From NCBI GenBank assembly GCA_023898465.1, contig CP060223.1, positions 960,001 to 1,024,000 on the forward strand: a stretch of DNA of 64,000 nucleotides. The letters are read 5' to 3'. The DNA comes from Candidatus Nomurabacteria bacterium (lineage in GTDB: Bacteria; Patescibacteriota; Patescibacteriia; HK-STAS-PATE-3). Below, one piece after another: positions 27,982 to 44,963 of the stretch. Positions within the stretch are counted from its first letter, which is position 1; every line of letters begins with the position of its first letter. Below the pieces are notes generated by a model, which made no database searches, was not told the origin of the DNA, and saw nothing but the letters and a program-made list of their open reading frames with translations. A program made the position numbers and the translations under genes.

Positions 27982-27986
27982 AGGAA

Positions 27987-28012
27987 GGAGCCCGAGAAAT
28001 TTCTCAGGCTCC
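27987..28012. terminator. Bidirectional hairpin terminator after polA
   Basis: ggagcccgagaaatttctcaggctcc, a near-perfect 26-nt palindrome. Confidence 0.5.
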
Positions 28013-28022
28013 ATAGTCGAGT

Positions 28023-28280
28023 TCAGCTCGCATGAGCGAATCGGCGTGCGGCGAGGTCATAGTCAACTTCTTTGGCACAGGTCCGCACCGTCTCGGCGCT
28101 TGCCTGGACAAAAGGCGAGCGGCAACCGGGCTCAGAGCAAGCCTGCACCGTACGGCCAGGTACATCGTGCCGCATGACCGTTCCCTTGCAGCCCTGCACT
28201 ACGCAAGGTCCAACCGTTGTACCCGACATCAACTCACTCCTTTCAGGTCTCACTGTTTCTTGGATATCCGCGAAGCACAT
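28023..28280 (-). CDS. Small Cys-rich hypothetical protein (GC-rich cassette C)
   Basis: AGGAGGA Shine-Dalgarno before a minus-strand ATG (MCFADIQ...). 85 aa with 7 Cys. Lies between polA and holA on the opposite strand. Confidence 0.4.
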   Translation of the reverse strand: MCFADIQETVRPERSELMSGTTVGPCVVQGCKGTVMRHDVPGRTVQACSEPGCRSPFVQASAETVRTCAKEVDYDLAARRFAHAS

Positions 28281-28385
28281 GACTCCTCCTCTGCTGCAAG
28301 TCAAAAATGCGCCCCATGAGCTAAAGAGCGTAACATACGACGTCAGATTTACTCATTAGCCTACTTGTGTCAAGATAGCTGAGCT

Positions 28386-29363: not shown

Positions 29364-29616
29364 TCTTGACCAACTTGCTCAAGCGGGACTTCATTCGACT
29401 GCCGGTGTTTGGTTTGATGACCTTATTTTGGACAGCCTTGTCATAGGCCTTGAGAGCCTTTTTCAAAAAGTCTTGTGCCTGATCTTTTGCTTTGTTGGTA
29501 ACTGCTCGGCGAGTGTGCTTCACAAGATAGCGCAATTCGGTTTTCACCTTATCGTTGCGATCTTTCTTACGAGCATCTTGTCGGAGTGCCTTAGCGGCTG
29601 CTTTAGAGTTTGGCAT
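29353..29616 (-). CDS. rpsT: 30S ribosomal protein S20
   Basis: MPNSKAAAKALRQDARKKDRN... basic helical protein of 87 aa. Confidence 0.85.
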   Translation of the reverse strand: MPNSKAAAKALRQDARKKDRNDKVKTELRYLVKHTRRAVTNKAKDQAQDFLKKALKAYDKAVQNKVIKPNTGSRMKSRLSKLVKTIA

Positions 29617-29658
29617 AGCAATAGGTATGAATACGCGGGCCAGTGTACCAGTCAATCC

Positions 29659-30180
29659 TTATTTTGGCAAGTCCTGGGCCGCTGGCGCCTTTCCTTTACC
29701 ATTTTGGAACTGTTTTTTGAGGATAGATGATTTAAACTCCTCAGGTCGATACGCATCAATCCGGACAATCGAGCAGCGGAGGCGACGGCGTTTTAATTCG
29801 CGTTTTAGGTTTCGGGTAAAGGCTTTTTGATCATAGCCAAGCGCAATAACATCTGGTCGATAGTCATCAAGGACGCGATAGACATGGCGTTCATTGCCCA
29901 GGACAGCCTTAGTGACCGGCTTCAAGCGCTCGACTGAAATCCGACGCGTTTCTTCATCCCGGAGCGGCCAGGCCTTTTTCACGGTCAGCACAGTGCGATC
30001 ACGACCAACTACCACGATGAGCTCTTCACCATGCTTGCGGGCCTGCTCTAGGTAGTACTTGTGTCCAGGGTGGAGTAAATCAAAAGTGCCAAATGCTAAG
30101 ACCCGTCGTTTCCGACTCTGATTTCGGGGCATTGTACGCGGCATTTGAGTTGTAGTATTTGGGGTAGGCATTGCGTGCAC
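29659..30180 (-). CDS. Cytidylyltransferase-like nucleotidyltransferase (HxGH motif; RibL/FAD-synthetase or TagD-like)
   Basis: FGTFDLLHPGH motif. 173 aa with a Ser/Thr/Pro/Arg-rich N-terminal extension. Confidence 0.55.
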   Translation of the reverse strand: MHAMPTPNTTTQMPRTMPRNQSRKRRVLAFGTFDLLHPGHKYYLEQARKHGEELIVVVGRDRTVLTVKKAWPLRDEETRRISVERLKPVTKAVLGNERHVYRVLDDYRPDVIALGYDQKAFTRNLKRELKRRRLRCSIVRIDAYRPEEFKSSILKKQFQNGKGKAPAAQDLPK

Positions 30181-30267
30181 GAGTGTAGCATAAAAAGGAA
30201 AAGTGGCAAGCTGTAGGGACTGATAAGAGTCTATCCTAAGTCCCGACTTGAATCACTTCCTATTTTG

Positions 30268-32328
30268 TTATTTCTTTCCCCACCTACCCCGACCGGGTAG
30301 ATTGGCGTGACTTCGTTTGCCGCGCCGCGCGCGTAGGCTGCTTGTCCGCTTGGTCGGTTTCATTTGCGCGCGCAGTTCACTAATCTGATCGCGCAGCCGG
30401 GCAGCTTTTTCAAATTCCAAATTCCGAGCGGCTAAGTCCATGTGCCCTTCTAGCTCTCGAATAAGTTTAGGCAGCTCCTCGGCCGGGATGTCACCCATGC
30501 TTGGTTCGGGTGTTTCTTCTTCTACGCGTTTTTGGCCCGAGAGGCGATCCTCTTTGATAGCCTTTTTGATTCCTTTTGGAGTGATGCCGTGAGTTGTGTT
30601 GTAGTCCTGCTGGATTTTTCTGCGTCGTTCAGTTTCTTTTATAGCCCGGCGCATCGAGCCAGTCATTTTATCAGCGTACATAATAACGGTGCCATTGATA
30701 TGGCGCGCGGCGCGGCCCATAGTTTGGATGAGGGAGGTTTCAGAACGAAGATAGCCTTCTTTGTCAGCATCCAGAATAGCTACCAGAGAAACTTCTGGCA
30801 GATCGAGCCCTTCCCGCAGCAGGTTAATACCCACCACCACGTCATAGGTGCCAAGCCGTAAGTCACGGAGGATTTCCAATCGCTCCATTGTGTCCACATC
30901 GGCGTGAAGGTAGTGCACCTTAATACGCAGCTCGCGTAAATACTCAGCCAGGTCCTCAGCCATTCGTTTCGTAAGCGTCGTGATGAGGACGCGTTCCTTT
31001 GCGTGAATACGCTTTTCCACCTCTTCAACCAGGTTATCGATCTGATGCTTGGTTGGTCGGATCTCTATCACCGGATCGAGTAAGCCGGTCGGGCGGATAA
31101 CCTGCTCTACCACTTGACTACTGCGCTGTATCTCTAGATCGGTTGGCGTGGCTGAGACGTAAACAGTCTGCCCGGTGCGTTGTTCGAATTCATCTACTCG
31201 CAGCGGTCGGTTATCCAGTGCAGCTGGCAGGCGGAATCCAAAGTTCACCAGGTTTTGTTTGCGTGCTCGATCGCCCTCGTACATCCCGCGGATTTGCGGT
31301 AGGGTAATATGCGACTCATCAATGAAGAGGAGGAAGTCTTTTGGGAAGAAGTCGAGCAAGGTGTAGGGTGGCATGCCAGGTTTGCGGAAGGAGAAAAAGC
31401 GAGAATAATTTTCCACTCCATTGCAATAACCAGTAGCGGCAATCATTTCCATATCAAAGCGAGTGCGCTCTTCTATACGCTGCGCTTCAATCAGCTTATC
31501 GTGCTGTTTAAACCACTGCACGCGCTCGACCATTTCAGCTTCAATAGCCTGGAGAATCTCTTTTATTTTGTCTTTAGGAGTGACAAAGAGGCGAGCCGGA
31601 TAAATAGTGGTGGACTGCATAGTTTCGAGCGCATCACCGCTCAGAGGGTCGAGCTCAACAATGCGGTCAATCTCATTTCCAAAGAAGCTCACTCGCAAAC
31701 CGGTTTCTGCGTAGGCTGGATACACATCCACTGTATCGCCACGCACCCGGAAAGTACCGCGCCGGAAATCCTGCTCATTTCGCTGGTACAGGTTTTCTAC
31801 CAGCTGCTTCTGAAAATCATAGGGCGCTAATTGTTTTCCAAGCTTTAGGTCAATCGCAACACCTTGATATTCCTCTGGTGAACCAATACCGTAGATGCAA
31901 GAAACAGAGGCGACGATGATAACATCTTTGCGAGTGAGTAAGTCACGCGTGGCTGCATTGCGCAATCGTTCAATCTCCTCGTTAATTTGTGTTTCCTTTT
32001 CTATATAGGTATCAGAGCGCGGGATGTAGGCCTCTGGTTGGTAGTAGTCATAGTAGGACACAAAGTAGTCAACGGCGTTCTCCGGGAAAAATTCTTTAAA
32101 CTCAGAAGCCAGCTGAGCGGCCAATGTTTTGTTATGCGAAATGATTAAGGTTGGTTTACCAATATTGGCAATGACATTTGCCATGGTAAAAGTTTTACCT
32201 GAGCCCGTGACGCCCAGGAGGGTTTGATAATGATTACCCTTTTGCAGACCCTTGGTTAAGCCCTCGATTGCCTTGGGTTGGTCGCCGGTTGCTTGGAATG
32301 GAGAGACGAGCGTAAATGGAGAAGACAT
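30268..32328 (-). CDS. uvrB: Excinuclease ABC subunit B
   Basis: 686 aa. Walker A GVTGSGKT, helicase motifs, C-terminal UVR coiled coil (..[12 protein letters not shown]..). Confidence 0.95.
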
Positions 32329-32413
32329 AGTTTAGGTAGTGTAGCATGTCTTGACATTCATGTATGGTCCGCTATGGTTGCTGCAGTTCTTTTGAGTTTG
32401 CCAAGGAGGGACT

Positions 32414-32776
32414 ATGGCATACCGAGCACTTCGGCAGGAAACCCGAAAAAAGAGAGTTGGCTACCCGGTCATATTGAGGAAGGTGTCTCTCACGGGTCAC
32501 CAGCAGCATTTCGGATGCTTGGCGACTTTTGTATGGATGTTAGCCTTTGTTTGGCTCTGTCTTTTCCTGGAGTGGTGCCTTGATCTAAAGGTTGATACAG
32601 TGCTGAGTTCGACACAAGTCGCTCATCTCATGTATGAGGCCGGATTGAGGTTGATCACCCTCGCGGTGCTCATCGGCGCGTATGGCTACTTCAGTGTTCA
32701 AGCAACTCGCCAAGTCCTTATCCGACGTCCCACCAGTAAGAGGCGGCCGAAGCTGACAAAGGAGGATGCTCAATGA
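32414..32776 (+). CDS. Hypothetical 2-TM membrane protein (cassette D)
   Basis: AAGGAGGG Shine-Dalgarno before the ATG. 120 aa. GC-rich. Confidence 0.45.
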   Translation: MAYRALRQETRKKRVGYPVILRKVSLTGHQQHFGCLATFVWMLAFVWLCLFLEWCLDLKVDTVLSSTQVAHLMYEAGLRLITLAVLIGAYGYFSVQATRQVLIRRPTSKRRPKLTKEDAQ

Positions 32777-32997
32777 GTTGGCAACAGCGCGTGGAGGTGA
32801 GAGGTAATGAAGAGGTCGTGCAATCACAAGATGTGTGGCTGACACACAGGCCTGGACCAGGCGAGCAGCTCATCCTCGAGCTTCAACTCGTGAGAGGTGG
32901 TCGGCAGGCATTCTCCTGCTTCGTGGATGAGGCTGCCTCGACAGAGTCACGGATGGTTTTGCGAGATTTGCAAGAGACTCGCATCTCAGTGGGCTGA
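32773..32997 (+). CDS. Hypothetical protein (cassette D)
   Basis: AAGGAGGA Shine-Dalgarno. ATGA overlap with the previous ORF. 74 aa. Confidence 0.4.
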   Translation: MSWQQRVEVRGNEEVVQSQDVWLTHRPGPGEQLILELQLVRGGRQAFSCFVDEAASTESRMVLRDLQETRISVG

Positions 32998-33133
32998 ACT
33001 TGAGGCGCAGCATGAAGAGTATTTGAGAGCAGTGTGGTACACCCCGCTGCTCTTTATCTTGACTTTCTTCCTCTTTTTTCGCACACTGTGGCTGGTTCCT
33101 TGCATTTGAATGAACAAAAGGCTGGGGGAAGAT

Positions 33134-33634
33134 ATGAGGCTAATCCAAGTAGGCGAATTGGTACTGAGCCTGCGGAGCAATTTAGGAACTTTGGTCAGTC
33201 TGAGCGATGACATTGTTCGCATGGACGACAAGGTGGACAATATGGCTCAGGACGAAAGTCAGGAGTCGACTCCGAGCCCGGAGGATGATGATGGACCAGA
33301 GGCAAGCCCGGTGATGTCCATGGAACAACTCATGGGGCAGATCGGGGAAACCTGGCAGCGGATAGGGGGAGCCGCAACTACTCTTCTCGACGAAAGAGAG
33401 AGCCCCGGCTATGGAGCCGCGTGCCACTGCATGGGCGAGATGTTGATGGGTCTTCATCAGCGCCTCGGTGGGAGGTCCCTGGATGACAGTGGCAGGGAGC
33501 TTGTTGCTGCACTGCATGAATCTTTGCAGGGAATAGGCACTGACCCTGGCAACATCTCAATGATGAGTCTCGGGCATTACAGTAGCGATTTCAGTGAGCG
33601 CTATCTTGGCTGGTGCGCGAGACAAAGGGGCTAG
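33134..33634 (+). CDS. Hypothetical acidic protein (cassette D)
   Basis: GGGGGAAG Shine-Dalgarno before the ATG at 33134. 166 aa. Followed by terminator 33659-33695. Confidence 0.45.
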   Translation: MRLIQVGELVLSLRSNLGTLVSLSDDIVRMDDKVDNMAQDESQESTPSPEDDDGPEASPVMSMEQLMGQIGETWQRIGGAATTLLDERESPGYGAACHCMGEMLMGLHQRLGGRSLDDSGRELVAALHESLQGIGTDPGNISMMSLGHYSSDFSERYLGWCARQRG

Positions 33635-33658
33635 CCAGGATTACTCGGAGGGTTACGC

Positions 33659-33695
33659 ACAGCGCTTTGTCGATTGATAGAGCGCTGTTTTCTTG
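33659..33695 (+). terminator. Rho-independent terminator after cassette D
   Basis: acagcgct-ttgtcgattgatag-agcgctgt followed by tttcttg. Confidence 0.6.
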
Positions 33696-33736
33696 CTTAG
33701 TAGCCGAAAGAGATAAACCTACGCTATACTCCAAAC

Positions 33737-34309
33737 ATGATTGCCATACTCCGCGGAAAAGTTATTCAACTTGGTGAAAAAACTGCCATTCTCGATGTGC
33801 AGGGCGTTGGTTATGAGCTTTTTCTCAGTCCAAATGTGCGCGCATCGTTGAACGTAGATCAAGATATTACTCTGCATACCTATCTGAATGTGCGGGAAGA
33901 TGCCATGGAACTCTATGGTTTTCAATCAGCGGCCGAGCGTTCATTCTTTAAGCAGCTTATTTCGATTTCCGGTGTTGGACCAAAAAGTGCGCTGGGTGTG
34001 TTGGCAGTAGCAAGCTTGGATGAGGTGAAACGAGCAGTGGCCTCTGGTGATGCCAGTATGCTGACCAAGGTGGCCGGTATAGGGCGTAAGACGGCTGAGC
34101 GTATTGTGGTTGAGTTGAAGGAAAAACTAGTCGGAGAAGTATTAGAATCCCAAGGCGCCACAGCCGGCGACAGTGGTATTTTGGAAGCGCTGCAAGGCTT
34201 AGGGTATTCACTTATGGAAGCACGTGAGGCAGTTCGCGGGATCCCGGCTACTATTGAGGGTTTTGATGAGCGATTGAAAGTGGCCTTAAAGATGATTGGA
34301 AAGTCATAA
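33737..34309 (+). CDS. ruvA: Holliday junction DNA helicase RuvA
   Basis: 190 aa. MIAILRGKV..GVGYEL N-terminus and HhH motifs (ISGVGPKSA, VAGIGRKTAERI). Confidence 0.9.
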   Translation: MIAILRGKVIQLGEKTAILDVQGVGYELFLSPNVRASLNVDQDITLHTYLNVREDAMELYGFQSAAERSFFKQLISISGVGPKSALGVLAVASLDEVKRAVASGDASMLTKVAGIGRKTAERIVVELKEKLVGEVLESQGATAGDSGILEALQGLGYSLMEAREAVRGIPATIEGFDERLKVALKMIGKS

Positions 34310-35316
34310 TGGACGTTAGGGAAATAAGTGACGCGGTAGCTTGGGATGGATTTATCGGAGCGCAAAATCAAGCGCAGTTTTTACAGTCTTGGCATTGGGG
34401 TGAATTTCAGCGAGCGCTAGGTCGACAAATAGTACGCCTGGGTGTCTTTGACGGAGCGCGGCAACTCGCAGCCGCCCAAGGTGCCATTTATCATCTGCCG
34501 ATGAATCAACGCTATCTCTATATTCCTCGTGGCCCCATTATGCTGGACTATACTGACAAAGCAGTGTGGCAGGCGCTTCATCAAGCCTTATTGGAGCGGG
34601 CGCAACAAGCTCGTGCATTGGCGATTCGGATAGAGCCACTCATGCTCCGCAGCGCTGAAGCACCATCGATTGTTGAGTTGGGGTATCAACAGACTGAGGC
34701 AATGCAGCCGGCTGATACACGACTCCTTTCCCTTCACACAAGCGAGGATGACATCCTAAATGCAATGCATCAGAAGACTCGCTACAATATTCGCTTGGCT
34801 GAGAAGAAGGGTGTGCAGGTGATAACGACACACGCGGAAAAAGACCTCGAGACCTTTTTACAGCTCCAGCACGTGACCGCGAGCCGCGATAACATTAGCC
34901 CCTTCCCAGACAGCTACTTCCGCACAATGTTTGCGACTTTACCAGAGCTCATGCGCTCCATCGTGCTGGCGCAATACAACGGCATGACCCTAGCAGCCAA
35001 TCTCATGATTCGTTATGGCGATACCATGACCTATAGTCATGGTGCTTCATCAAATGAGCATCGAAATGTGATGGCACCCTATCTTGCCCAATGGCGATCA
35101 ATTCAACACGCAGCGCAGTCAGCTTTGAAATGGTATGACTTCCGTGGTATTGCACCGAGTGACGATCCACAACATGCCTGGGCTGGTATTACACGTTTCA
35201 AAGCCGGCTTCGGTGGCGAGGCGGTGCATCTCATTGGCACCTATGATTTCCCAGTTGAAAAAGGTTGGTATCAAGCCTATATGTTTGGTAGGAAGTTAGT
35301 CGGCTTGGTCCGTTAG
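34309..35316 (+). CDS. FemAB-family peptidoglycan interpeptide-bridge aminoacyltransferase
   Basis: 335 aa. FLQSWHWGEF N-terminal motif typical of Fem/MurM proteins. One-nt overlap with the ruvA stop. Confidence 0.7.
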   Translation: MDVREISDAVAWDGFIGAQNQAQFLQSWHWGEFQRALGRQIVRLGVFDGARQLAAAQGAIYHLPMNQRYLYIPRGPIMLDYTDKAVWQALHQALLERAQQARALAIRIEPLMLRSAEAPSIVELGYQQTEAMQPADTRLLSLHTSEDDILNAMHQKTRYNIRLAEKKGVQVITTHAEKDLETFLQLQHVTASRDNISPFPDSYFRTMFATLPELMRSIVLAQYNGMTLAANLMIRYGDTMTYSHGASSNEHRNVMAPYLAQWRSIQHAAQSALKWYDFRGIAPSDDPQHAWAGITRFKAGFGGEAVHLIGTYDFPVEKGWYQAYMFGRKLVGLVR

Positions 35317-35480
35317 CTCTGCAGCAATTTACAATACGCAGGCTTCCCGCTATGCTGATTTTGCTTCCTTACTTTGCGCCCGTAGCTCTCGCCCGCTACG
35401 CCTGAGCGAAGCGATGGCGAGTGGGCAGTTGGCCCCTCGGCCATCTCGATGACAATATTAAAATCTTACGCATTATATAT

Positions 35481-35557
35481 GCGCCCGTAGCTCAGTTGGA
35501 TAGAGCGTATGGTTCCGGTCCATAAGGTCGTAGGTTCGATTCCTGCCGGGCGCACCA
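35481..35557 (+). tRNA. tRNA-Arg (anticodon CCG)
   Basis: Manual cloverleaf. Acceptor GCGCCCG/CGGGCGC, D-arm GCTCAGTTGGATAGAGC, anticodon stem TATGG/CCATA with loop TTCCGGT, T-arm GTAGGTTCGATTCCTGC, and an encoded CCA. Confidence 0.85.
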
Positions 35558-35578
35558 CGCGAAGTACGTTATTACTAA

Positions 35579-36142
35579 GTGACAGTACATAACATGCAGT
35601 TTGGCTTCCTGACACTTACCTATCTCTTCTTTATTGCCCTGGCCCTAGCAGTCATGGAAATTCAAATTGAGGGGAAGCACGGTTGGGCAACTCAGTTACC
35701 GACTTGGCGTTATGCACGTCCATGGCTCCTGCGGCTCACCAATGGACGACCTCTCACGGGCTATCACATTGCCCTTGGCGCTTTACTCCTCCTCTTCTTT
35801 CATTTACCACAGGCGTGGTTTGGTTGGTCGCGACAAGCTGAGGCAGTGACCCTTGCCTCTTTCTTTTTCCTTACAGTGTTTTGGGATTTTCTTTGGTTTG
35901 TTTTGAATCCACACTACGGATTGCGTCGTTACTCCCAAGCTCATGTATGGTGGTTTCCTAAACGCTTCCTGGGTTTACCGGTGGAGTATTACGGCGGCCT
36001 CTTTCTCTCCGTGTTGAGCTATGTAGCACTCTCTTCTCAGGACATCCCTACAGCCCTAAGTGAGTGGGCGATTGCTGGCGTCATTTTCCTTGGCTATGTA
36101 GTTGTTACAGCGCTACTGAGTTTACTTATTCGGCGACAATAA
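35579..36142 (+). CDS. Hypothetical polytopic membrane protein
   Basis: 187 aa. Several Trp/Phe-rich TM segments. Confidence 0.45.
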   Translation: MTVHNMQFGFLTLTYLFFIALALAVMEIQIEGKHGWATQLPTWRYARPWLLRLTNGRPLTGYHIALGALLLLFFHLPQAWFGWSRQAEAVTLASFFFLTVFWDFLWFVLNPHYGLRRYSQAHVWWFPKRFLGLPVEYYGGLFLSVLSYVALSSQDIPTALSEWAIAGVIFLGYVVVTALLSLLIRRQ

Positions 36143-36300
36143 TACATTACTTGACTGCATATGCATGACTTGCTAGTGTCTCAAGTCGTTCTTTAGCATA
36201 GTCTCAGTAGCGAGGTGGGCAAGCGTCTTGCTTAGCTCGCTGCTGAGATGGCAGCTGTTCTCAGATGTCCTGAGGACACTTCCCGAGATGGGAGGGATAG

Positions 36301-36693
36301 ATGTACCCGAAGCCGATTAACTTGGAGTTGACCGAGTCGCTGCTGGTTGCCATTACGGCAATTCTGCGAGGAGTTGCCTTCCTGTGCAAGCTCGAAGTGA
36401 GTGCGCTCAAGTTGGTGAATGAAGACGGATCCGGCAGTGATAGAATCCGGCACATCAACTTCGAGGTGAAGTGCGTCATCGACGGCAAGCCCGTTGTCAT
36501 GACTGGTCGGGTATCAGTCGAGCGAGGCAGTGAGGACGATCCGACGCCTTGGCAGCCGATGCTTCTGGATCTCGATTTGGCTGAAGGTAAAGGAAGCGTC
36601 AGTTGTGGTTTCGACTTCGAGGCCGTCTGCGGCAAGGTGCTCGTGATTCGCTGCGTCCCCATGGAGTCGTGCCAATCACGCCCTAGAGCCTAG
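36301..36693 (+). CDS. Hypothetical protein (cassette E)
   Basis: GGGAGGGATAG Shine-Dalgarno before the ATG. 130 aa. GC-rich. Followed by terminator 36703-36733. Confidence 0.4.
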   Translation: MYPKPINLELTESLLVAITAILRGVAFLCKLEVSALKLVNEDGSGSDRIRHINFEVKCVIDGKPVVMTGRVSVERGSEDDPTPWQPMLLDLDLAEGKGSVSCGFDFEAVCGKVLVIRCVPMESCQSRPRA

Positions 36694-36810
36694 GCCCAAC
36701 GAGCCGTCGTACTCTTTGTTACGGCGGCTTTTTCTTGACACTCAGCAGTGAACAGCGTAAAGAGACCGTGAAGTTAGTCTTGCACATTTACTTTACTGAA
36801 GGAGGATTTC

Positions 36811-37386
36811 ATGAGTGGCAAAACACTCATCTCTGTATTCGACAAGTCTGGATTGGTTGAAGCCCTTGCTCCACTTCATAAGCTCGGCTACACGGAGCGA
36901 CTGGCTTCGGCGGGTACGGCGAAACTACTGACCGAGTCTGGTATGCCGACCGATGACGTAGCGAGCTTGGTCGGCGGAGGACCGATCCTGGGACACAAGG
37001 TAGTGACTTTGTCCCGTGAGGTTCACGCAGGTCTTCTGGCCAGCGAGGCTGAGCAAGCTGAGCTGAATGAATTGGGCATCCCACGGATCGAAATCCTCAT
37101 CGTCGGGTTCTATCCACTGCACGCGGCGCTGGTTGACCCGGGCCGTACTTTGGCATCTGTGCTGCAGTCGCTCGACATCGGTGGTCCGACCATGGTGATG
37201 TCTGCAGTGAAGGGTGGACGCATTGTCGTGGTCGACCTGAACGATATTCCCCAGCTCGTGCGCTACCTGAAGGGCGAGTTATCGGATGGTCCCGGCTTCC
37301 TGGCCACCTTGTGGTGGAAGGCGGCAGCCAGGGTGGCTGAGTACTACGCTTCCCTGGCAATGTATCTCAATGAGTACCGCCGTTAG
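36811..37386 (+). CDS. MGS-like domain protein resembling the IMP-cyclohydrolase (PurH N-terminal) domain
   Basis: AAGGAGGA Shine-Dalgarno. TLISVFDKSGLVEALA..LASAGTAKLL..GMP..VASLVGG.ILGH.VVTL...HAGLLA parallels the PurH/MGS signature. Confidence 0.5.
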   Translation: MSGKTLISVFDKSGLVEALAPLHKLGYTERLASAGTAKLLTESGMPTDDVASLVGGGPILGHKVVTLSREVHAGLLASEAEQAELNELGIPRIEILIVGFYPLHAALVDPGRTLASVLQSLDIGGPTMVMSAVKGGRIVVVDLNDIPQLVRYLKGELSDGPGFLATLWWKAAARVAEYYASLAMYLNEYRR

Positions 37387-37427
37387 CCTGATCTCAGGAT
37401 CGTACAGTGACATCCACTCGGTTCTTT

Positions 37428-37471
37428 GCCCCGCCACGATCTACATACAGTAGTAGTGGGCGGGGCTTTTT
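37428..37471 (+). terminator. Rho-independent terminator
   Basis: gccccgccac...gtgggcggggc followed by ttttt, then TTGACT. Confidence 0.65.
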
Positions 37472-37547
37472 CTTGACTGCGTACAACTATGTGCTAAGGT
37501 CGGCGTAGAGTTTCTTGAGCGGGGTAGAAACAGAAGGAGGGTGTGAC

Positions 37548-38531
37548 ATGCCGTTCTTTGACAGTAGTCCTGTAATCCTGAGTGGTAGTGCACACCCGGC
37601 ATTAGCCACTGCGATTGCCAGAAACCTGGGACTAGATCCGGGGGCTATGAATGTCGGTCGCTTTCCGGATCATGAGATCAAAGTGCAGATCGGCGGAAAC
37701 ATTCGTGGTAAGGACGTTTTCATTGTCCAGCCAACGCATGCAACTGCTGATCGAGGCTCGGACAACTTGCTAGAACTACTCATCATGACTGATGCTGCAC
37801 GGCGTGCGTCGGCCGAACGCATCACTGTTGTTCTTCCTTACTTCGGGTACGCCCGACAGGATCGGAAGGACAAACCTCGGGTGCCTATCACTGCGAAGTT
37901 GGTGACGAGCATGATTCAGCATGCCGGCGCTGATCGCTTCCTCAGCATTGATTTGCACTCGGGCCAGATCCAGGGCTTCACTGACGCTCCCTTTGACCAT
38001 CTCTATGGTTGGATCGTCTTGCTGCCGGTGATCAAGTCCCTCAATCTTGCGGCACTTTCCATCGGGTCGGTCGATCTGGGCGGAGCAACTATGGTTGGGA
38101 ACTGGCGCTCGCGTATTCCGGGGTCTGATGTGGTGCTGATCGACAAGCAGCGATTGGGCGATCGAAGCACCAGGATCAGGCAAGTGATCGGCGAAGTTGA
38201 AGGCCGCGATATGGTTCTGGTTGACGATGTGCTTAGCAGTGGCATTTCCATGGAGGTAGCGGCTAGGGCTATGCAAGAGCGAGGCGCGCGTAGTGTTCGT
38301 GCAGCGGTGACCCACGGAGTTTTCTGTGAAGACTGTATTCGTCGGTTGGAGGAGGCGCCGATAACCGAAGTGTATGTGACCGATACCTTGCCTCTCCCGA
38401 GCAGCCTTCCAGGCAAGTTCCGCGTTTGTTCGGTGGCACCGTTGCTCGGCGACGCCATCATGGACATTCACAACTCGAATTCACTCACCCACCATTTTGG
38501 GCTGGATGGATCGGATGTGAAAAGCGAATGA
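37548..38531 (+). CDS. prs: Ribose-phosphate pyrophosphokinase (PRPP synthetase)
   Basis: AGGAGGG Shine-Dalgarno before the ATG at 37548. DHEIKVQIGGNIRGKDVFIVQ, VLPYFGYARQDRK, and PRPP-binding loop VLVDDVLSSG. Confidence 0.85.
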   Translation: MPFFDSSPVILSGSAHPALATAIARNLGLDPGAMNVGRFPDHEIKVQIGGNIRGKDVFIVQPTHATADRGSDNLLELLIMTDAARRASAERITVVLPYFGYARQDRKDKPRVPITAKLVTSMIQHAGADRFLSIDLHSGQIQGFTDAPFDHLYGWIVLLPVIKSLNLAALSIGSVDLGGATMVGNWRSRIPGSDVVLIDKQRLGDRSTRIRQVIGEVEGRDMVLVDDVLSSGISMEVAARAMQERGARSVRAAVTHGVFCEDCIRRLEEAPITEVYVTDTLPLPSSLPGKFRVCSVAPLLGDAIMDIHNSNSLTHHFGLDGSDVKSE

Positions 38532-38541
38532 CGCAGCAGCA

Positions 38542-38575
38542 ACGCCCGTCTCTTTCGAGAGCCGGGCGTTTTTCT
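38542..38575 (+). terminator. Rho-independent terminator after prs
   Basis: acgcccg-tctctttcgagag-cgggcgt followed by ttttt. TTGACC-17-TACAAC promoter immediately downstream. Confidence 0.6.
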
Positions 38576-38649
38576 CATATTGACCCAGGAAAATACCTAT
38601 GTTACAACGCTAACGCATTGGCGTGTGTAGCGAGAGTATTGGAGGGCGC

Positions 38650-38769
38650 ATGACTACGCTAAAAGGGAGTCGTCGTAACGAGCGCTGCCTGCGATGCGGG
38701 TACAAGCTCAAGTCCTGCATTTGCCCTAAGGGCATCTTTGGTTGGTTCCGGCGGCTTTTTCCTGGATAG
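38650..38769 (+). CDS. 39-aa zinc-ribbon-like mini-protein (CxxC...CxC)
   Basis: GGAGGG Shine-Dalgarno 4 nt before the ATG. MTTLKGSRRNERCLRCGYKLKSCICPKGIFGWFRRLFPG. Confidence 0.3.
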   Translation: MTTLKGSRRNERCLRCGYKLKSCICPKGIFGWFRRLFPG

Positions 38770-38920
38770 GACGGGATAACTCCTTGATGTGCCAATTGAT
38801 GAGGCGACATCCACTTCCCGGCGGCACTGCATTGCAGGTCGCCGGCGTTTTCATTGACAAAAAAGCCTTGAGGTTGTTTTGTGATAGCAAAACACCGCCC
38901 TTTGTCATGAGGAGGGAAAG

Positions 38921-39124
38921 ATGGACTCAAAGGAAATAGAACGCATGCGTGAATTGCTGGCCCTCGGCGACCGCCGAGAGTTGACCATGCCTGAAGTAAT
39001 CGAGCTTCAGGAGCTACGAAGGCAGGTGGGAGAATTGAGTCCGGGAACAATCCCAGAAGCAATGTTCCCTCAGGGGCCACCCAGAGAATCAGGCGATGAT
39101 GAGAGCATTGGACTCATTGCCTAG
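38921..39124 (+). CDS. Hypothetical 67-aa protein (cassette F)
   Basis: GAGGAGGGAAAG Shine-Dalgarno before the ATG. Terminator at 39140-39172. Confidence 0.4.
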   Translation: MDSKEIERMRELLALGDRRELTMPEVIELQELRRQVGELSPGTIPEAMFPQGPPRESGDDESIGLIA

Positions 39125-39205
39125 ACGATCTTCGCAATTGGCGACGTGCGTTTGTGCGTCGCCTTTCTTTTTCCAGGATTTTCGAAAAAATGCTACACTT
39201 TTACC

Positions 39206-39448
39206 ATGGAAGAAAAACATCGTGACGTGCATGGCCACAAAGTATTCTATGCCGAGGAGGCAAAACGCGGCGTGGAATATTTAGATAATGCTCTTGATTA
39301 TAAAGAGGCTGAGGTATTTTTTCGCGATGCAAAATCACATGGAGAAAGTGAATTCGAAGACGAAGATCGGAGAAACTTCACTTTAGTGTATAATAAAAAC
39401 GGAACCTACACCCTAGTGTACCGTAAAGAATCTCGAGGCTGGTTTTAA
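39206..39448 (+). CDS. Hypothetical 80-aa protein
   Basis: ATG at 39206 in a lower-GC context. MEEKHRDVHGHKVFYAEEAKRGVEYLD... Confidence 0.35.
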   Translation: MEEKHRDVHGHKVFYAEEAKRGVEYLDNALDYKEAEVFFRDAKSHGESEFEDEDRRNFTLVYNKNGTYTLVYRKESRGWF

Positions 39449-39454
39449 TACCAT

Positions 39455-39850
39455 ATGCGAAAACGAGTAAAAAAAGAATTTGAGCAGCGCTCTACGTGGC
39501 AAGATAGAATCGCCGATACAATAACTCGTTTTTCCGGTTCAATGACTTTTGTTTACCTCCACATCGGATGGTTTATTTTATGGTTAATAGTGAATGGTTT
39601 AGAGGGAACAAAGCCATGGGATCCCTATCCATACAACTTCCTCACTCTGATTGTTTCACTGGAAGCGATTTTCCTTTCCACCTTTGTGCTTATTTCACAA
39701 AACCGTGAATCTGAGCGGACCGATGTGCGCGATCAGCTTGACTATGAAATTGATGTGAAGGCTCAGGAGCAAATCGAACGCATTATGAAGAGCCTGGAAC
39801 GCATTGAACGCAAACTCAATACTAGCAGCAAAAAAACAAAGCAAAAGTAG
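39455..39850 (+). CDS. DUF1003 family membrane protein
   Basis: 131 aa, 2 TM. WQDRIAD.IT.F.GSM.FVY.H..WF..W......PWDPYP..LL.L..SLEAIFLS.FVL..QNR pattern. Confidence 0.65.
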   Translation: MRKRVKKEFEQRSTWQDRIADTITRFSGSMTFVYLHIGWFILWLIVNGLEGTKPWDPYPYNFLTLIVSLEAIFLSTFVLISQNRESERTDVRDQLDYEIDVKAQEQIERIMKSLERIERKLNTSSKKTKQK

Positions 39851-39880
39851 TTCCTGATTCTTTGTAATTCCGGCCGGCAT

Positions 39881-41188
39881 ATGTTGAAACAGCTACTCAG
39901 ACCTTTTATCCCACGATCAATCCTTTTAAGTTATCATCGTTGCCGAGCGCATTTGACCGCGTTTCGTTTTGGCTATCCGGGTAAGAAGCTGCGCGTCATT
40001 GCGGTGACCGGCACAAATGGGAAATCAACAGTAGTAGAGTGGATCGGGCAATTGCTTGCTCTCATGGGTGAGCCGGTAGGATGGATTTCTACCGCATCGG
40101 TTCGTATCGGCGATGAGACAAAGCTAAATACAACGAAGTTGACTACGGCTGATACGAGTTTTTTACAGTCTCATCTTGCTAAAATGGTGCGAGCAGGCGC
40201 AAAGTATGCAGTTCTAGAAGCTTCCTCTCAGGGCTTAGCGCAAGGTCGTTTGAACGGGGTGCCGATTCAGGGTGCAGTTTTTACCAATCTCACACCAGAA
40301 CATATTGAATGGCACGGATCGATGTTGGCATATCAACGGGCTAAGGAGCTATTGTTTCAAAGACTCATGTCGAGTGCTCGTGTAACAGATGCCCCAAAAG
40401 TGAGTGTGGTAAACGGAGACGACCCAGTGGCTGATGCCTTTCTTCGCTACCCAGCGGATAAAAAGGTTGTATGTACTCTGTATGGAAGCGTGCACACAAA
40501 AGCTGACGTGCATCGTCGAGCCGAAATTGTTGAGCAAAACGAAAAAGGAACCCGCATTCGTATTGAGGAGCATGAGGTGTTTTTACCTTTTCTTGGGCGC
40601 TTCAATGTGATGAATGCCCTGGAAGCAGTAGCCGTGCTTGAGCAATATGGTTTCCCATTAGCTAAGCTAGTACCTGCATTGGCGCAGTTAGTGCCGGTAC
40701 CGGGACGCTTAGAGTTTATTCCAAGTAAGCGCGATTTTCAGATTTTAGTCGACTATGCGCCTGAACCAGCTTCTATGCAGGCGCTTTATCAAGTGCTTGA
40801 GCAGCTCCATCCAAAGCGTATATTGCATGTTTTTGGTTCGGCTGGCGGTGGACGTGATAAGAGTCGGCGTCCAGTGCTCGGCAAATGGGTGGCCGAACAC
40901 GCAGACCTTGCTATTGTGACAAACGAGGATCCTTATGACGAAGACCCAGAGCAGATAATTGACGATGTTGTAGCCGGAACAAAAGAGGCCTCACCCCTTC
41001 GTGCCCAAGTTGAACGGGTATCTGATCGTCGGCAAGCCATTGCCCATGCACTTTCCCTAGCAAAATCAGGCGATTTAGTCGTAATTACCGGCAAAGCATC
41101 TGAACAATGGCTGATGGGCCCAAAAGGTACGCGCCAGGCCTGGGACGATCGTCAGGTTGTGCGCGAAGAACTCGGGAATAGACTTTAA
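39881..41188 (+). CDS. murE: Mur ligase family protein (MurE-like UDP-MurNAc-tripeptide synthetase)
   Basis: 435 aa. P-loop VTGTNGKST, LEASSQGL, TNLTPEHIEWHGS, C-terminal Mur ligase domain. Confidence 0.6.
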   Translation: MLKQLLRPFIPRSILLSYHRCRAHLTAFRFGYPGKKLRVIAVTGTNGKSTVVEWIGQLLALMGEPVGWISTASVRIGDETKLNTTKLTTADTSFLQSHLAKMVRAGAKYAVLEASSQGLAQGRLNGVPIQGAVFTNLTPEHIEWHGSMLAYQRAKELLFQRLMSSARVTDAPKVSVVNGDDPVADAFLRYPADKKVVCTLYGSVHTKADVHRRAEIVEQNEKGTRIRIEEHEVFLPFLGRFNVMNALEAVAVLEQYGFPLAKLVPALAQLVPVPGRLEFIPSKRDFQILVDYAPEPASMQALYQVLEQLHPKRILHVFGSAGGGRDKSRRPVLGKWVAEHADLAIVTNEDPYDEDPEQIIDDVVAGTKEASPLRAQVERVSDRRQAIAHALSLAKSGDLVVITGKASEQWLMGPKGTRQAWDDRQVVREELGNRL

Positions 41189-41229
41189 GAAGTTTTTCGT
41201 TACAGCTTTCTCCCTGCGCAAGGGGGGAA

Positions 41230-41510
41230 TTCGGATAAAATGTGGATAAGTGTGCACGCACTAAAAGTGAAATAGGGCAATCCGAAAACATATTTTGCTA
41301 ATATTAGCAGAAAATAACAAAAAATAGCCCTGAGAACACTACCCTTGACAGCTGTCAAGTTGATTGGTATGGTGTTGAAGCATCTATTTTGACCCTAAAT
41401 CGCGATTCCTGACCTTGCGGAAGAACATTTCCTCAGTCCGAGGCACACAATAGGCGACGCGACAGTATATTACGTCCCCGGGACTACCGAGCGGACGTGG
41501 TAATTTTTTA
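41230..41510 (+). promoter_or_regulatory. rpoB upstream region: DnaA box, two palindromes and a sigma70-like promoter
   Basis: tgtggataa at 41241-41249. Palindrome tgctaatattagca at 41296-41309. Palindrome cttgacagctgtcaag at 41344-41359 overlapping -35 TTGACA, then 17 nt and TATGGT -10. Confidence 0.5.
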
Positions 41511-44500
41511 ATGCAAAAAAACTCATCAGGGGTAACTAAAGAACGGAAGTTTTTTACAAAACTTCACGAAGCCATTCCGCTGCCTGATCTCATCGAGATT
41601 CAGAAGCGTTCCTATGAATGGTTTTTCCGCGATGGGCTCAAAGAGCTTTTCGAGGAGATTTCACCTATCCGCGACTTTATCGGTCGTGACCTTGAGTTAT
41701 ATTTTGGTGACTACTACCTGGATGAGCCAAAGTTTGATGAAGTAGCTGCCAAAGCAAAGAACGTAACCTATGAGGCTGCACTTCGCGTACAAACTCGTTT
41801 AGTTAACAAAAAGACTGGTGAAATCAAGGAACAGGAAATTTACCTGGGTGATTTCCCACTCATTACTGATCGCGGCACTTTCATTATCAACGGTATTGAG
41901 CGCGTGGTTGTTTCACAGCTGATTCGTTCAGCTGGCGCCTTCTTTACTGCTGAGTACTTGCGCGGACGTTATTACTATGGTGCAAAAATTATTCCAAACC
42001 GTGGCGCTTGGCTGGAATTAGAAACTGATGCGAATAATGTTATCTCAGTAAAGATTGACCGTAAGCGCAAAGTACCGATCACATCACTGCTTCGCGCCTT
42101 TGGCCTTGGTTCTGATGAAGAATTGCTCGGCCTCTTTAAAGAAGTTGATACTCACGCGACTGATAAATATCTAGAAGCAACGATTGCTAAGGATGCCGCT
42201 CGTTCAGAGGCAGAGGGCTTGAAGGAAGTCTACAAGCGTATTCGTCCAGGTGACTTGGCTACAACTGACAACGCACGTGAATTGATTCACAAGATGTTCT
42301 TCTCATTCGATCGATATGACTTCGGTCGAGTTGGTCGTTACAAGCTGAATCATCGCTTCGGCTTTGATTTCCCAAATGACAAAGAGCATCGTGTCTTGCA
42401 AAAAGATGATGTGATCGCCATTGTTCGCGAAATCATCACCTTGAATAACCGCCAAGCAGAGCCGGATGATATCGACCACTTAGGTAATCGACGAGTTCGC
42501 GCCATCGGTGAATTGGTTCAAAACAAGTTCCGCGTTGGTTTGGCTCGCATGGAGCGTATCGTAAAAGATCGCATGTCCACTCGCGACATCACTACACTCA
42601 CTCCAAACCAATTAATTAATGCGCGTCCAATTATTGGTGCAGTAAAAGAGTTCTTCATGAGCTCCCAGTTGTCCCAATTCATGGATCAGCATAATCCATT
42701 GGCTGAGTTAGAGCACAAGCGCCGCTTGTCTGCTATGGGTCCTGGTGGTTTGTCACGCGAACGAGCCGGATTTGATGTGCGTGACGTGCACCGCACCCAC
42801 TATGGTCGTATCTGTCCAATTGCCACTCCAGAAGGACCAAACATTGGTTTGGTCGGACACTTGGCCAGCTACGCACGTATTAATGACTATGGATTTATCG
42901 AAACACCGTTCCGCCGAGTTATTCATGATATACCAAACGATCCTAAGCAAACTGAAGGTGAAGAGCTACGTGAGGATGTACAAGATGCAGCTGGTCAGAC
43001 TGTGGCCAGTGCCGGCACAAAAATCACTAAGGATATCGCTGAGAAGTTAAAGCAATCTGGCAAAGAGCTTATTCCGATTAAGCCACGTGTGTTAAGCGAT
43101 GTGCTTTACTTGGATGCCTTTACTGAAGAGCGTGCTGTGACCACTGCCGCAACCACCCCGATTGATGAAAACGGTTATTTCATGAGCGAGCGGGTTGAGG
43201 TTCGACGTCATGGTGAGCCAACCATTGGTACACCGTGGGAAGTTGATTACATGGACGTTTCACCGAAGCAGATTGTGAGTGTGACCACGTCCTTAATTCC
43301 TTTCTTGGAACACGATGACGCGGTACGTGCCCTGATGGGTACCAATATGCAACGCCAGGCTGTGGCTGTTATTAACCCACAATCACCGATTGTTGGTACT
43401 GGTGTTGAGGGTCGCGCAGCACGTGATTCTGGTCAGGTTGTCTTAGCGAAGAATGCCGGTGAGATTGTGAAGGTGCAAGGTAACCTTATACAGATTAAGG
43501 AAGCTGATGGTACTATTCGTGATTATCCTTTGCGTAAATTCAATCGATCAAACGCTTCCGGATCAATTAACCAGAAGCCTTTAGTTGATCGTGGACAAGA
43601 AGTAGAAGCCGGTGCGCTTTTGGCTGATGGTCCTTCCACTGAAGACGGTGAATTAGCACTTGGGCAAAACATTCTTGTGGCTTTCATGCCATGGGAAGGT
43701 GGTAACTACGAAGACGCTATTCTCTTGTCTGAACGTTTGGTGCAGGGCGACCGCTACACTTCTATTCACATCGAGGACTACTCAATTGATGTACGCGACA
43801 CAAAGCTCGGACCAGAAGTAGTTACGCGCGATATTCCTAACGTGTCTGAAGAGAAGTTAAAGGATTTGGATGAAGACGGTGTGATTCGCATCGGAGCAGA
43901 AGTTTCTTCAGGTGATATTTTGGTCGGCAAGATCACCCCGAAGGGTGAGACCGAGCTCTCAGCTGAGGAAAAATTACTCCGGGCAATTTTTGGTGAAAAA
44001 GCGAAGGATGTAAAAGATAGCTCACTCTACTTAGAGCATGGTGAGCACGGTAAAGTGGTTGACATCAAAGTCTTTTCACGAGAAAAGGGTGACAAACTTT
44101 CATCCGGCGTGATCAAGACTATCCAAGTTTCAGTTGCCCAACTTCGCAAGATTCAAGTTGGCGACAAGATGGCTGGCCGACACGGAAACAAAGGTGTTAT
44201 TTCTCGCATTGTGGCTGTAGAAGATATGCCATTCCTAGAGGACGGTACCCCGGTCGACATTATTCTCAACCCGTTGGGTGTTGCCTCTCGTATGAACCTC
44301 GGACAAATTTTGGAAACCCACCTCGGGCTCGCCGCAAAGAAGCTTGGTTACAAGGTTGCCAGTCCAGCTCTCGATGGCGTACCAGAAGAAACCATTCGTG
44401 AAGAATTAGCCAAGGCTGGTTATCCAGTTGACGGTAAGCTGACCTTGATTGATGGTCGTACTGGTAAGCCAATGGATCAAAAAGCTACCGTGGGTAACAT

Positions 44501-44963
44501 TTACATGTTGAAATTGAATCACTTGGTTGAAGATAAGATTCACCAACGTTCCATTGGTCCATACTCTCTCGTTACGCAGCAGCCGCTCGGTGGTAAAGCT
44601 CAGTTCGGTGGTCAGCGCTTTGGAGAAATGGAAGTGTGGGCACTCGAAGCATATGGTGCCGCCCATACCCTGCAAGAAATGTTGACCATTAAGTCTGACG
44701 ACGTACCAGGTCGCTCCAAGGCCTATGAGTCAGTCATTAAGGGTGAACCAATTACCCGACTCAATGTTCCAGAATCCTTTAACGTATTAGTCCGTGAATT
44801 AAAGGGTCTTGGTTTGGATGTTGATTTGATCGGCGCCAAACCACGTGATGGAGAAGAAGAAAAACCTCGCCAACCCTCTGAAGAAGAGAAAAAACTAGCA
44901 ACGGCTGAAACAGGTGGAGGAGAGGACGTCCCCGAAGAACCTAAAGAATCAAGCGATGATTGA
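41511..44963 (+). CDS. rpoB: DNA-directed RNA polymerase subunit beta
   Basis: 1150 aa with conserved RpoB blocks (..[13 protein letters not shown].., ..[18 protein letters not shown]..). Confidence 0.97.

Follow-up and report, generated by a model that had tools for sequence, protein, structure and literature searches.

What does a partial copy of a tRNA gene signify when a run of GC-rich gene cassettes follows downstream? The question is raised by a stretch of 64,000 nucleotides (nt) from a Candidatus Nomurabacteria bacterium (hereafter the window), in which an intact tRNA-Arg(CCG) gene has a short duplicate of its own 5′ end just upstream. On its other side, beyond one further gene, lies a block of five genes (36143-39173), among them that for ribose-phosphate diphosphokinase (Prs). 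The original prediction treated repeat and block as parts of one tRNA-associated element, perhaps old and degraded, with the hedge that it might not be a classical island. The repeat and the block are in fact two unrelated features side by side, merged in that earlier reading, and the block did not enter through the tRNA. The explanation that we favour, and regard as somewhat probable, is that an old and small insertion left a scar at the tRNA gene and that a separate variable slot holds an ancestral Prs together with four additions. The locus is mostly ordinary; new are only the variant form of the scar and the wider pattern of tRNA-end duplication. The features around the tRNA are as follows.

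35328 to 35356, forward strand: promoter-like site TTTACA-17-TATGCT, upstream of the putatively displaced 5′ fragment (consensus scan, pattern match only).
35375 to 35388, forward strand: upstream copy of tRNA positions -1 to +13, TGCGCCCGTAGCTC (exact repeat; D-arm breakpoint as in the 5′-class duplicates of relatives).
35378 to 35443, forward strand: GC-rich hairpins at about 35378-35426 and at 35430-35443, containing GAGCGAAGCGA (DNA fold).
35389 to 35480, forward strand: 92-nt putative insert with no open reading frame (ORF), in which an AT-rich tail with a promoter-like site follows two GC-rich hairpins (DNA fold, promoter scan).
35449 to 35476, forward strand: promoter-like ATGACA-16-CATTAT in the AT-rich tail (promoter scan).
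35481 to 35557, forward strand: tRNA-Arg(CCG), intact, CCA encoded, native and syntenic (ARAGORN, Rfam, gene order in relatives).
35594 to 36142, forward strand: memb182, a native membrane protein of 182 amino acids (aa), with no Shine-Dalgarno (SD) sequence and a GC content at third codon positions (GC3) of 0.49 (homolog downstream of tRNA-Arg(CCG) in a relative; composition).

ARAGORN places the tRNA gene at 35481-35557, and it scores 67.5 bits with the Rfam tRNA model. Its first 13 nt, GCGCCCGTAGCTC, have exactly two copies in the window, at 35376 and 35481, where 0.03 are expected. The T before it is repeated as well, which makes 14 nt in all (TGCGCCCGTAGCTC, at 35375 and 35480), so that the 13-nt duplicate described 105 bp upstream of the tRNA is exact and one nucleotide longer than first noted. 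The spacer is GC-rich and structured, as had also been proposed: the DNA fold of 35376-35450 reaches -22 kcal/mol (z -3.3), whereas the RNA fold of the whole FemAB-tRNA spacer is not significant (z -1.25). In a promoter scan, promoter-like sites stand before both the 5′ fragment and the intact tRNA, and the one at 35328-35356 may, judged from its sequence, have been the promoter that the tRNA first had. The 3′ end of the tRNA has no second copy in the window, either exact or with up to 3 mismatches.

The tRNA is a native single-copy gene. The comparison set consisted of 80 Patescibacteria loci around the Mur ligase (MurLig) gene, referred to here by L numbers. A recurrent backbone runs through them: RuvA, often FemAB, often tRNA-Arg(CCG), a gap of 0-7 kb with unrelated content, and MurLig-RpoB. 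RuvA-FemAB and then tRNA-Arg(CCG) are also found in six other lineages (L012, L025, L026, L028, L031 and L089), and RuvA-FemAB-tRNA-Arg(CCG) is a conserved Patescibacteria backbone. These relatives are distant, the MurLig of the best GTDB representative being 47% identical and the best metagenome match to memb182 56% identical. On the RuvA side, the closest relatives to be had include the metagenome contig L089 (RuvA 59% identical). Its order is RuvA-FemAB-orf104-tRNA-Arg(CCG)-orf136-membrane protein-ABC transporter, and its membrane protein is 55% identical to memb182, for which no family match was found. Because L089 has tRNA-Arg(CCG) and then a memb182 homolog, both tRNA and memb182 are resident, in line with the earlier description of the membrane-protein gene as native.

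How common are such self-copies at tRNA genes? In the related loci compared, 18 of 72 tRNAs (25%) are accompanied by a mismatch-free copy of 13 nt or more of their own sequence within 500 nt on the same strand; for random 75-mers the proportion is 29 of 2959 (1.0%). The longest copy starts at tRNA position 1 if upstream, or ends no more than 3 nt from the 3′ end if downstream, in 15 of these 18; the exceptions, with internal or mixed longest copies, are L020 tRNA-Thr, L022 tRNA-Gln and L043. Breakpoints fall at positions 13-22, in the D arm, for the 5′ class and at about positions 52-60, in the T arm, for the 3′ class. The 5′-end repeat upstream of tRNA-Arg(CCG) is not chance: neither this recurrence nor the expectation of 0.03 agrees with the chance match that the original prediction had named as its alternative.

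Replication slippage or microhomology-mediated repair could produce a repeat with no mobile element at all, its coincidence with the start of the tRNA being accidental. The window contains six direct repeats, 12 nt or longer and no more than 300 nt apart, against about 0.3 in Markov simulations, and a 15-mer chance match to a distant site exists. The repeat nevertheless begins exactly at tRNA position -1, and slippage accounts poorly both for the excess of self-copies over controls in relatives and for the terminus lying on the matching side in 15 of the 18; we therefore hold it to be improbable. Other close direct repeats in the window lie at 22629/22782, 56035/56086 and 58781/58795 (14, 17 and 23 nt).

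The spacers of some relatives are more informative. At the orthologous tRNA-Arg(CCG) of L012, positions 1-15 are repeated 346 nt upstream and the spacer is filled by a GIY-YIG ORF; at a tRNA-Val in L129, positions 1-22 are repeated 307 nt upstream. In both, a GC-rich hairpin pair is followed by a GIY-YIG ORF of 83-101 aa (Pfam PF01541, E 3e-16 and 8e-13) whose stop codon is formed by T8-A9-G10 of the tRNA itself. The tRNA-Gln of L015 has the same layout with a decayed ORF, and these three loci define what is here called the tRNA 5′-end insertion with mini GIY-YIG gene. Of the five GIY-YIG ORFs in all loci together, three are no more than 14 nt away from a tRNA of this kind. The other two are L076 9696-9980, directly upstream of the Mur ligase in the variable slot, and L042 7113-7379. 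L043 has three tandem 5′ fragments of 47-59 nt and no ORF at its tRNA-Arg(CCG), along with an extra copy of positions 22-72. Its array (3121-3414) repeats a 47-nt unit of its own 5′ fragment 2.8 times at 100% identity, and the second copy of positions 22-72 follows the intact gene, preceded by a short GC-rich segment. The repeat, its recurrence and this architecture are matters of direct observation.

The window fits the 5′ class in its position-13 breakpoint, in the hairpins directly after the fragment and in the promoter-like sites before both fragment and gene; it departs from the GIY-YIG members in that its spacer has no ORF. No GIY-YIG ORF is present in the 92-nt spacer or anywhere else in the window. 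GC-rich hairpins directly follow the 5′ fragment in the window, L012 and L015, and DNA folds of the spacers give z -8.4 for L012, -3.3 for the window and -2.5 for L015, those of L129 and L043 not being significant. The sequence GCGAAGCG is common to the window insert and three other tRNA-linked spacers. As a side observation, the motif (CT)GAGCGAAGCG (window 35406-35413) is found in 4 of 13 tRNA-linked spacers, including L024, L070 and L073, about 50 times the background, and also inside intergenic hairpins of other Patescibacteria loci (L022 13756, L122 5455, L042 3298). One apparent trace of a GIY-YIG gene was rejected: the frame ending at the tRNA TAG reads ...MTILKSYALYMRP and resembles the ...RLKSYLTG end of two GIY-YIG proteins, and in the profile comparison it ranks below many random window peptides.

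Occupancy of the orthologous tRNA-Arg(CCG) varies: L012 has the full element, L043 and the window have ORF-less remnants, and the site is empty in five lineages (L025, L026, L028, L031 and L089). This variation bears on another idea, namely that the upstream copy is functional and pairs with the 3′ acceptor strand of the tRNA in a read-through precursor, modulating folding or RNase P processing. The 14/14 identity could reflect maintenance and a promoter-like site does lie upstream of the fragment, but the copy is not kept at the orthologous tRNA in the five empty lineages and the whole-spacer RNA fold is not significant, making such a role very improbable.

How might a scar of this kind have arisen? 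A short DNA would have inserted into the D arm of tRNA-Arg(CCG), between positions 13 and 14, and would have carried or created a replacement copy of positions -1 to +13, leaving the downstream gene intact. The original 5′ fragment would have been stranded 105 bp upstream, behind the old promoter. The 92-nt ORF-less spacer, with its two GC-rich hairpins and AT-rich promoter-like tail, would be the remnant. Events of the same type may have occurred at many Patescibacteria tRNA genes, some of which still have an 83-101-aa GIY-YIG gene in the spacer. Both this insertion mechanism and the tie of the window scar to the GIY-YIG elements are what we infer from the comparison.

Could the 14-nt pair instead be attL and attR, the attachment (att) sites of an integrase-borne element, phage or integrative, which went into the tRNA gene and of which all but 92 nt was later deleted? 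The T stem and loop are the usual sublocation used by integrases, and a deletion bias is expected in streamlined genomes. Many relatives have 3′-end duplicates that start in the T stem or loop, with short remnant-like inserts. Fragments of tRNA genes flanking integrated elements are also common in prokaryotes (PMC9897764), and partial tRNA-gene duplicates have been described as att scars (Reiter 1989, Williams 2002, as cited in PMC9897764). As in such scars, a direct repeat of a terminal tRNA segment brackets an insert and an intact tRNA gene is kept. However, the window duplicates the 5′ and not the 3′ end, its breakpoint is in the D arm, and the insert is 92 nt long with no integrase. No integrase remnant was seen, and an exact scan of two spacer segments against viral contigs gave no match. 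The space in the 5′-class inserts of relatives, moreover, is exactly taken up by a small GIY-YIG ORF rather than by phage genes in decay. To our knowledge the D arm is not a usual integrase sublocation. A decayed integrase element is plausible for the 3′ class and less so for a D-arm 5′ duplicate; for the window pair we consider it unlikely.

The 3′-class sites share a layout of their own: the tRNA, a terminator, a GC-rich ORF-less insert of 100-230 nt, then 16-22 nt that reproduce the 3′ end of the tRNA exactly, and another terminator. The inserts open with an inverted copy of the tRNA T arm. They have no Rfam match and are unrelated in sequence, all-against-all BLAST of the spacers finding no shared sequence except between L021 (tRNA-Gln) and L024 (tRNA-Lys), both Uhrbacteria, with 86% identity over 65 nt. 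The sites are listed by locus.

L014: 11838-12033.
L015: 3637-3955.
L020: 1200-1987 and 13300-13833.
L021: 17998-18310.
L024: 2420-2761.
L067: 4739-4996.
L070: 16705-17027.
L073: 1141-1441 and 2072-2305.

If the block did not come in with the scar, where does it belong? The repeat cannot bracket the downstream genes because its 5′-end copy lies upstream and spans the 92-nt insert only, and memb182 (35594-36142) parts the tRNA from the block. With the duplicate upstream, memb182 in between and no att-like repeat of the 3′ end, the proposed link between repeat and block does not hold. The earlier remark that no integrase or attachment repeat is visible was sound: the 3′-end searches were negative, and Pfam found no recombinase domain in genes from 24.3 to 45 kb, ORFs further away not all having been scanned. 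A tRNA-integrated island was accordingly rejected, there being no integrase, no 3′ tRNA repeat, no contact with the tRNA and no foreign Prs; atypical composition was the one island trait found, and the hedge against a classical island was right. A group I intron was rejected because the tRNA is uninterrupted and has no Rfam intron match up to E 10. Rfam searches of the whole window at the gathering threshold, and of 35250-39300 at E up to 10, returned the tRNA alone, with no intron and no riboswitch of the ZTP or phosphoribosyl pyrophosphate (PRPP) type. An integron array was rejected too: no integrase is present, the genes have promoter-like sites of their own, and their 3′ hairpins with T-runs are like intrinsic terminators (attC models were not run).

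Over 24309-35421 and 35549-43957 the window agrees with three independent Logan assemblies without a single mismatch, so that neither the block nor either of its junctions is an assembly chimera. The identical Logan contigs stop at 35421 and resume at 35549, none bridging the two positions. The left break falls within the hairpin of the spacer, 60 nt short of the tRNA, and the right break in the 3′ end of the tRNA. The break at 35421, outside the tRNA, is one hint of population heterogeneity and suggests that the sample contains either another allele or a further copy of the hairpin module.

The block and the genes that follow it are laid out as below.

36151 to 36300, forward strand: TTGACT promoter-like site and structured hyp130 5′ untranslated region (UTR) with three hairpins (RNA fold z -5.2).
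36301 to 36693, forward strand: hyp130, 130 aa, near-orphan, GC3 0.69, GGGAGGG SD (database search).
36701 to 36740, forward strand: terminator hairpin and T-run abutting a TTGACA promoter-like site (terminator and promoter scans).
36811 to 37386, forward strand: MGS191, 191 aa, standalone homolog of the PurH N-terminal domain, or inosine monophosphate (IMP) cyclohydrolase; GC3 0.66, GGAGG SD (Pfam, NCBIfam, PDB).
37429 to 37478, forward strand: terminator CCCCGCC...GGCGGGG with T5, abutting the prs TTGACT promoter (sequence reading; promoter kept in L140 and L141).
37548 to 38531, forward strand: Prs, class I ribose-phosphate diphosphokinase, 327 aa, GC3 0.59, GGAGGG SD (NCBIfam, Pfam, tree, synteny).
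38541 to 38585, forward strand: terminator with 13-nt arms and T-run, then a TTGACC promoter-like site (repeat and pattern scans).
38650 to 38769, forward strand: 39-aa CxxC...CxC ORF, GGAGGG SD, GC3 0.62 (ORF call, composition).
38818 to 38859, forward strand: terminator-like hairpin CCGGCG...CGCCGG with T4, then a TTGACA promoter-like site (sequence reading, pattern scan).
38921 to 39124, forward strand: 67-aa ORF, GGAGGG SD, GC3 0.54 (ORF call, composition).
39140 to 39173, forward strand: terminator ending the block, 10 pairs of which 7 are G-C (terminator scan).
39206 to 41188, forward strand: native anchor p80-DUF1003-Mur ligase, then rpoB; low GC3, no SD, p80 apparently leaderless (order in L140, L141/L142 and L145/L146).

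Gene content is as originally described (a hypothetical protein, an MGS/PurH-like protein, Prs and the 39-aa and 67-aa ORFs), and so is the distinct composition, with GC 0.546 in 36143-39170 against 0.476 in the whole window. The five genes are monocistronic, self-contained units, each with a TTGAC promoter-like site and a GGAGG-type SD before it and a hairpin with T-run after it. A terminator T-run abuts TTGAC four times in 36729-38858, and a fifth TTGACT lies at 36151. Five other T-run/TTGAC matches in the 64 kb (49338, 49346, 53751, 60659 and, on the reverse strand, 54306) have no preceding hairpin. A generic promoter scan did not flag the TTGAC sites, which have weak -10 hexamers, and flagged two of the five terminators.

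The gene at the centre of the block, prs, proved to be old. The 327-aa protein is by its sequence a class I PRPP synthetase of predicted activity, full-length in NF002320 (334.3 bits, cut-off 297) and TIGR01251 (301 bits, cut-off 113) and with both Pfam halves. The closest relatives, located through Mur ligase (52-61% identity), place it in a shared gene order: L141/L142 have Prs-p80-DUF1003-79aa-MurLig-RpoB-RpoC-(170aa)-FtsK and L140 has response regulator-Prs-298aa-p80-72aa-MurLig-RpoB. In L145/L146 a Y1 transposase occupies the Prs position upstream of p80-DUF1003-MurLig; these IS200-like transposases lie at L145 8445-8900 and L146 3819-4274. Among the window, L140 and L141, Prs identities of 49-56% parallel those of MurLig (58-63%). 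All three share the layout of a terminator abutting the prs promoter, and the promoter itself, TTGAC-N10-CTATRTGN-TAAKST (TAAGGT or TAATCT). A neighbour-joining tree that includes the best database matches unites the window Prs with those of L140, L141 and P0090 in 100 of 100 bootstraps and places this clade away from sequences of similar raw score in Omnitrophota, Planctomycetota and Eisenbacteria. The taxa named in the top matches had suggested that prs came by horizontal transfer out of Omnitrophota or Planctomycetota, an origin that the tree rejects. Prs is an ancestral resident of the slot, older than the split of the lineage from its relatives. Slot content otherwise varies, with an ABC transporter in L089, the Y1 transposase in L145 and unrelated metabolic genes in more distant lineages.

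In the explanation that we favour, the block fills a slot between RuvA-FemAB-tRNA-Arg-membrane gene and p80-DUF1003-MurLig-rpoBC, in which Prs would be the ancestral occupant. None of hyp130, MGS191, the 39-aa ORF and the 67-aa ORF is at this slot in the relatives compared, and all four are lineage-specific additions. The original prediction had set acquired cassettes against native genes at a compositionally uniform, syntenic locus. On ancestry, Prs is native by tree and synteny, grouping with its syntenic relatives in all bootstraps; MGS191 belongs to a Patescibacteria-type family and is not syntenic. Composition is not uniform, the block being GC3-rich.

Does that composition mean that the whole of 36143-39173, prs included, is a fairly recent import, an islet unrelated to the tRNA that came from a relative of higher GC in the same clade and whose synteny was kept through homologous replacement? 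GC3 of 0.54-0.69 against about 0.43 in core genes would agree with this, as would the TTGAC, GGAGG and terminator signals that the five genes share and their native neighbours lack. The relatives range from 0.45 to 0.57 GC, and those with Prs synteny have genomic GC of 0.54-0.57; Prs has also diverged a little further than MurLig. A close donor, however, is not known, the best database match to Prs being 55% identical, and the window Prs branches beside those of relatives and is not nested within them. Further genes with SD and high GC3 are scattered through the window, and the L140 Prs is likewise GC-richer than its own neighbours, which suggests a property of a gene class and not one import. 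We regard a recent import as possible but doubtful. The GC-rich prs may nonetheless reflect either replacement in the slot by DNA from a GC-richer relative or GC-biased conversion in a recombination hot spot.

Several observations weigh against the combination of an old scar and a slot with ancestral Prs. The 18 self-copy cases are partly non-independent (for example, tRNA-Gln beside FtsX in L014, L015 and L022), although the excess is still large despite such related cases. Nothing in the 5′-class spacers can be aligned, so that their family link is one of architecture, and a profile of four GIY-YIG proteins found no significant coding signal in any frame of the window spacer. The window duplicate, at 13-14 nt, is the shortest in the tRNA-duplicate set, and given the six short close repeats local duplication is a general process in the window. 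As to the slot, a Prs GC3 of 0.59 against about 0.43 in core genes is unexpected under simple vertical descent, and with MurLig identity of 61% at most gene gains and losses cannot be ordered.

The 5′-class elements recall some known systems. Phage T4 SegB is a free-standing GIY-YIG homing endonuclease gene beside tRNA genes (PMC2330249), and in L012, L129 and L015 a GIY-YIG ORF similarly lies directly against a tRNA gene. Unlike SegB, these putative nucleases are 83-101 aa long, consist of the catalytic domain only and sit between a 5′ fragment and the tRNA; two of them stop at the tRNA T8-A9-G10, and the window copy has no ORF. Group I introns occur in anticodon loops of Patescibacteria tRNA genes (PMC13011429) and intervening sequences in rRNA genes of the candidate phyla radiation (PMC11270868). 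The introns share with the window insert the phylum and the insertion at tRNA genes, but they are in the anticodon loop and are spliced from RNA, whereas the window insert is outside an uninterrupted tRNA and flanked by a duplicate. A literature search found nothing on terminal tRNA self-duplicates with mini GIY-YIG genes.

A bolder generalization, offered tentatively, is that a hitherto undescribed class of minimal selfish elements inhabits the tRNA genes of Patescibacteria and leaves them intact. A catalytic-domain-only GIY-YIG gene after GC-rich hairpins would enter the D arm, supply a new 5′ end and place its stop codon in U8-A9-G10. ORF-less inserts at the T arm and 3′ end would run in parallel, about a quarter of tRNA genes would be marked, and the window repeat would be a solo scar. 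If this held phylum-wide, it would add a third route by which selfish DNA comes to reside in essential single-copy tRNA genes, beside self-splicing introns and integrase-borne elements. It would also give catalytic-domain-only GIY-YIG proteins a testable role, and would have consequences for how tRNAs are annotated in candidate-phyla genomes and for how tRNA fragments are used there to mark islands. The locus calls for caution in another respect: an island should not be called just because GC-rich, self-contained cassettes adjoin a tRNA, and here the key "cargo" gene, prs, predates the lineage.

Phage morons and small genomic islets are promoter-gene-terminator units of atypical composition. 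The five block units resemble them in being self-contained and GC-richer than their surroundings, but differ in having no prophage context and no phage homologs, and the Prs unit is kept in position and promoter across relatives. PHROGs matches of the block proteins are restricted to generic Prs and PurH-like families, PADLOC found nothing meaningful, and viral-contig scans with MGS191, hyp130 and the 67-aa protein gave no match. A phage origin of MGS191 was rejected, phage tblastn giving only PurH or cyanophage PurH2 at no more than 36% identity. The window Prs has departures of its own: unlike typical Prs it is only 49-56% identical even to syntenic orthologs, and its PRPP loop reads DDVLSSGIS instead of the usual DD..DTGGT.

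MGS191 matches Pfam MGS (PF02142), NCBIfam PurH over positions 7-195 and PDB chains of PurH (E 1e-20) as well as ForH, and is identical to the Candidatus Nomurabacteria bacterium entry H6760_04975. Its family is standalone and of Patescibacteria type, with about 90 proteins (89) of some 200 aa on ordinary chromosomal contigs, one of which adjoins purB-purE-purC; MGS191 is not syntenic in relatives. It aligns over the whole domain with the IMP cyclohydrolase domain of PurH, ForH (PDB 6nko) and cyanophage PurH2. We take RVKTLHP, YP, DIGG and AAKN to be the active-site motifs and catalytic residues of PurH; MGS191 keeps YP, DIGG and the K of AxK, whereas HKVVTLSRE stands in place of RVKTLHP. Throughout the standalone family a near-invariant GGGPILGH[RK]VVTLSREVHAG is found where PurH has G.PE.L.GRVKTLHP.VHGG, so that [RK]VVTLSRE replaces RVKTLHP, with Val for the Lys of VKT in every aligned member. 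Unlike PurH, these proteins have no 5-aminoimidazole-4-carboxamide ribonucleotide (AICAR) transformylase domain, although a few longer members retain part of it.

For hyp130, which has no family match, two other matches were found among 1.84 billion representatives. One of them, its sole homolog of equal length (130 aa; 37-39% identity), lies beside RuvA-FemAB in L147, followed by a diverged tandem copy. Both genes have a three-hairpin 5′ UTR (window 36186-36300, z -5.2; L147 1118-1248, z -7.9) with differing stem sequences, and the last hyp130 leader hairpin (CUUCCC...GGGAGG) covers the SD. The leader is, from these two sequences, a candidate cis-regulatory element. Nine stretches of P0331, a giant repeat protein of 2318 aa, match hyp130 residues 11-48 (E 1e-14, 28% identity), a similarity that may be compositional. 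No homolog was found for the 39-aa and 67-aa ORFs, whose reality is argued from SD, promoter-like site and terminator alone.

The window has two gene classes: low-GC3 core genes with no SD, and a minority, mostly small and hypothetical, with a GGAGG SD and GC3 of at least 0.54. The five block genes have GC3 0.54-0.69 and a strong SD, against 0.36-0.51 and no SD in their native neighbours and about 0.43 in core genes (for example, 14720-15298, 23295-24314, 30268-32328, 33737-34309, 39206-39448 and 41511-44963, all SD-less). Across the 57 window genes an SD and high GC3 tend to occur together (Fisher odds ratio 14, p 2e-4). A TANNNT box lies 4-11 nt before the start in 13 of 42 SD-less genes and 0 of 15 SD-led genes, against 9.7% of random positions, which suggests that many SD-less mRNAs are leaderless. 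The block is the largest cluster of the scattered GC3-rich, SD-led minority class, of which further members, mostly small hypothetical genes and one with DUF218, lie at 8.6, 12.6, 15.4-16.7 and 32.4-33.6 kb. Between uvrB and ruvA, 32350-33690 forms a second GC-rich unit, laid out like those of the block: a TTGACA promoter-like site, GGAGG SDs and hypothetical ORFs, here three in number (120, 74 and 174 aa), with a strong terminator (33659-33688).

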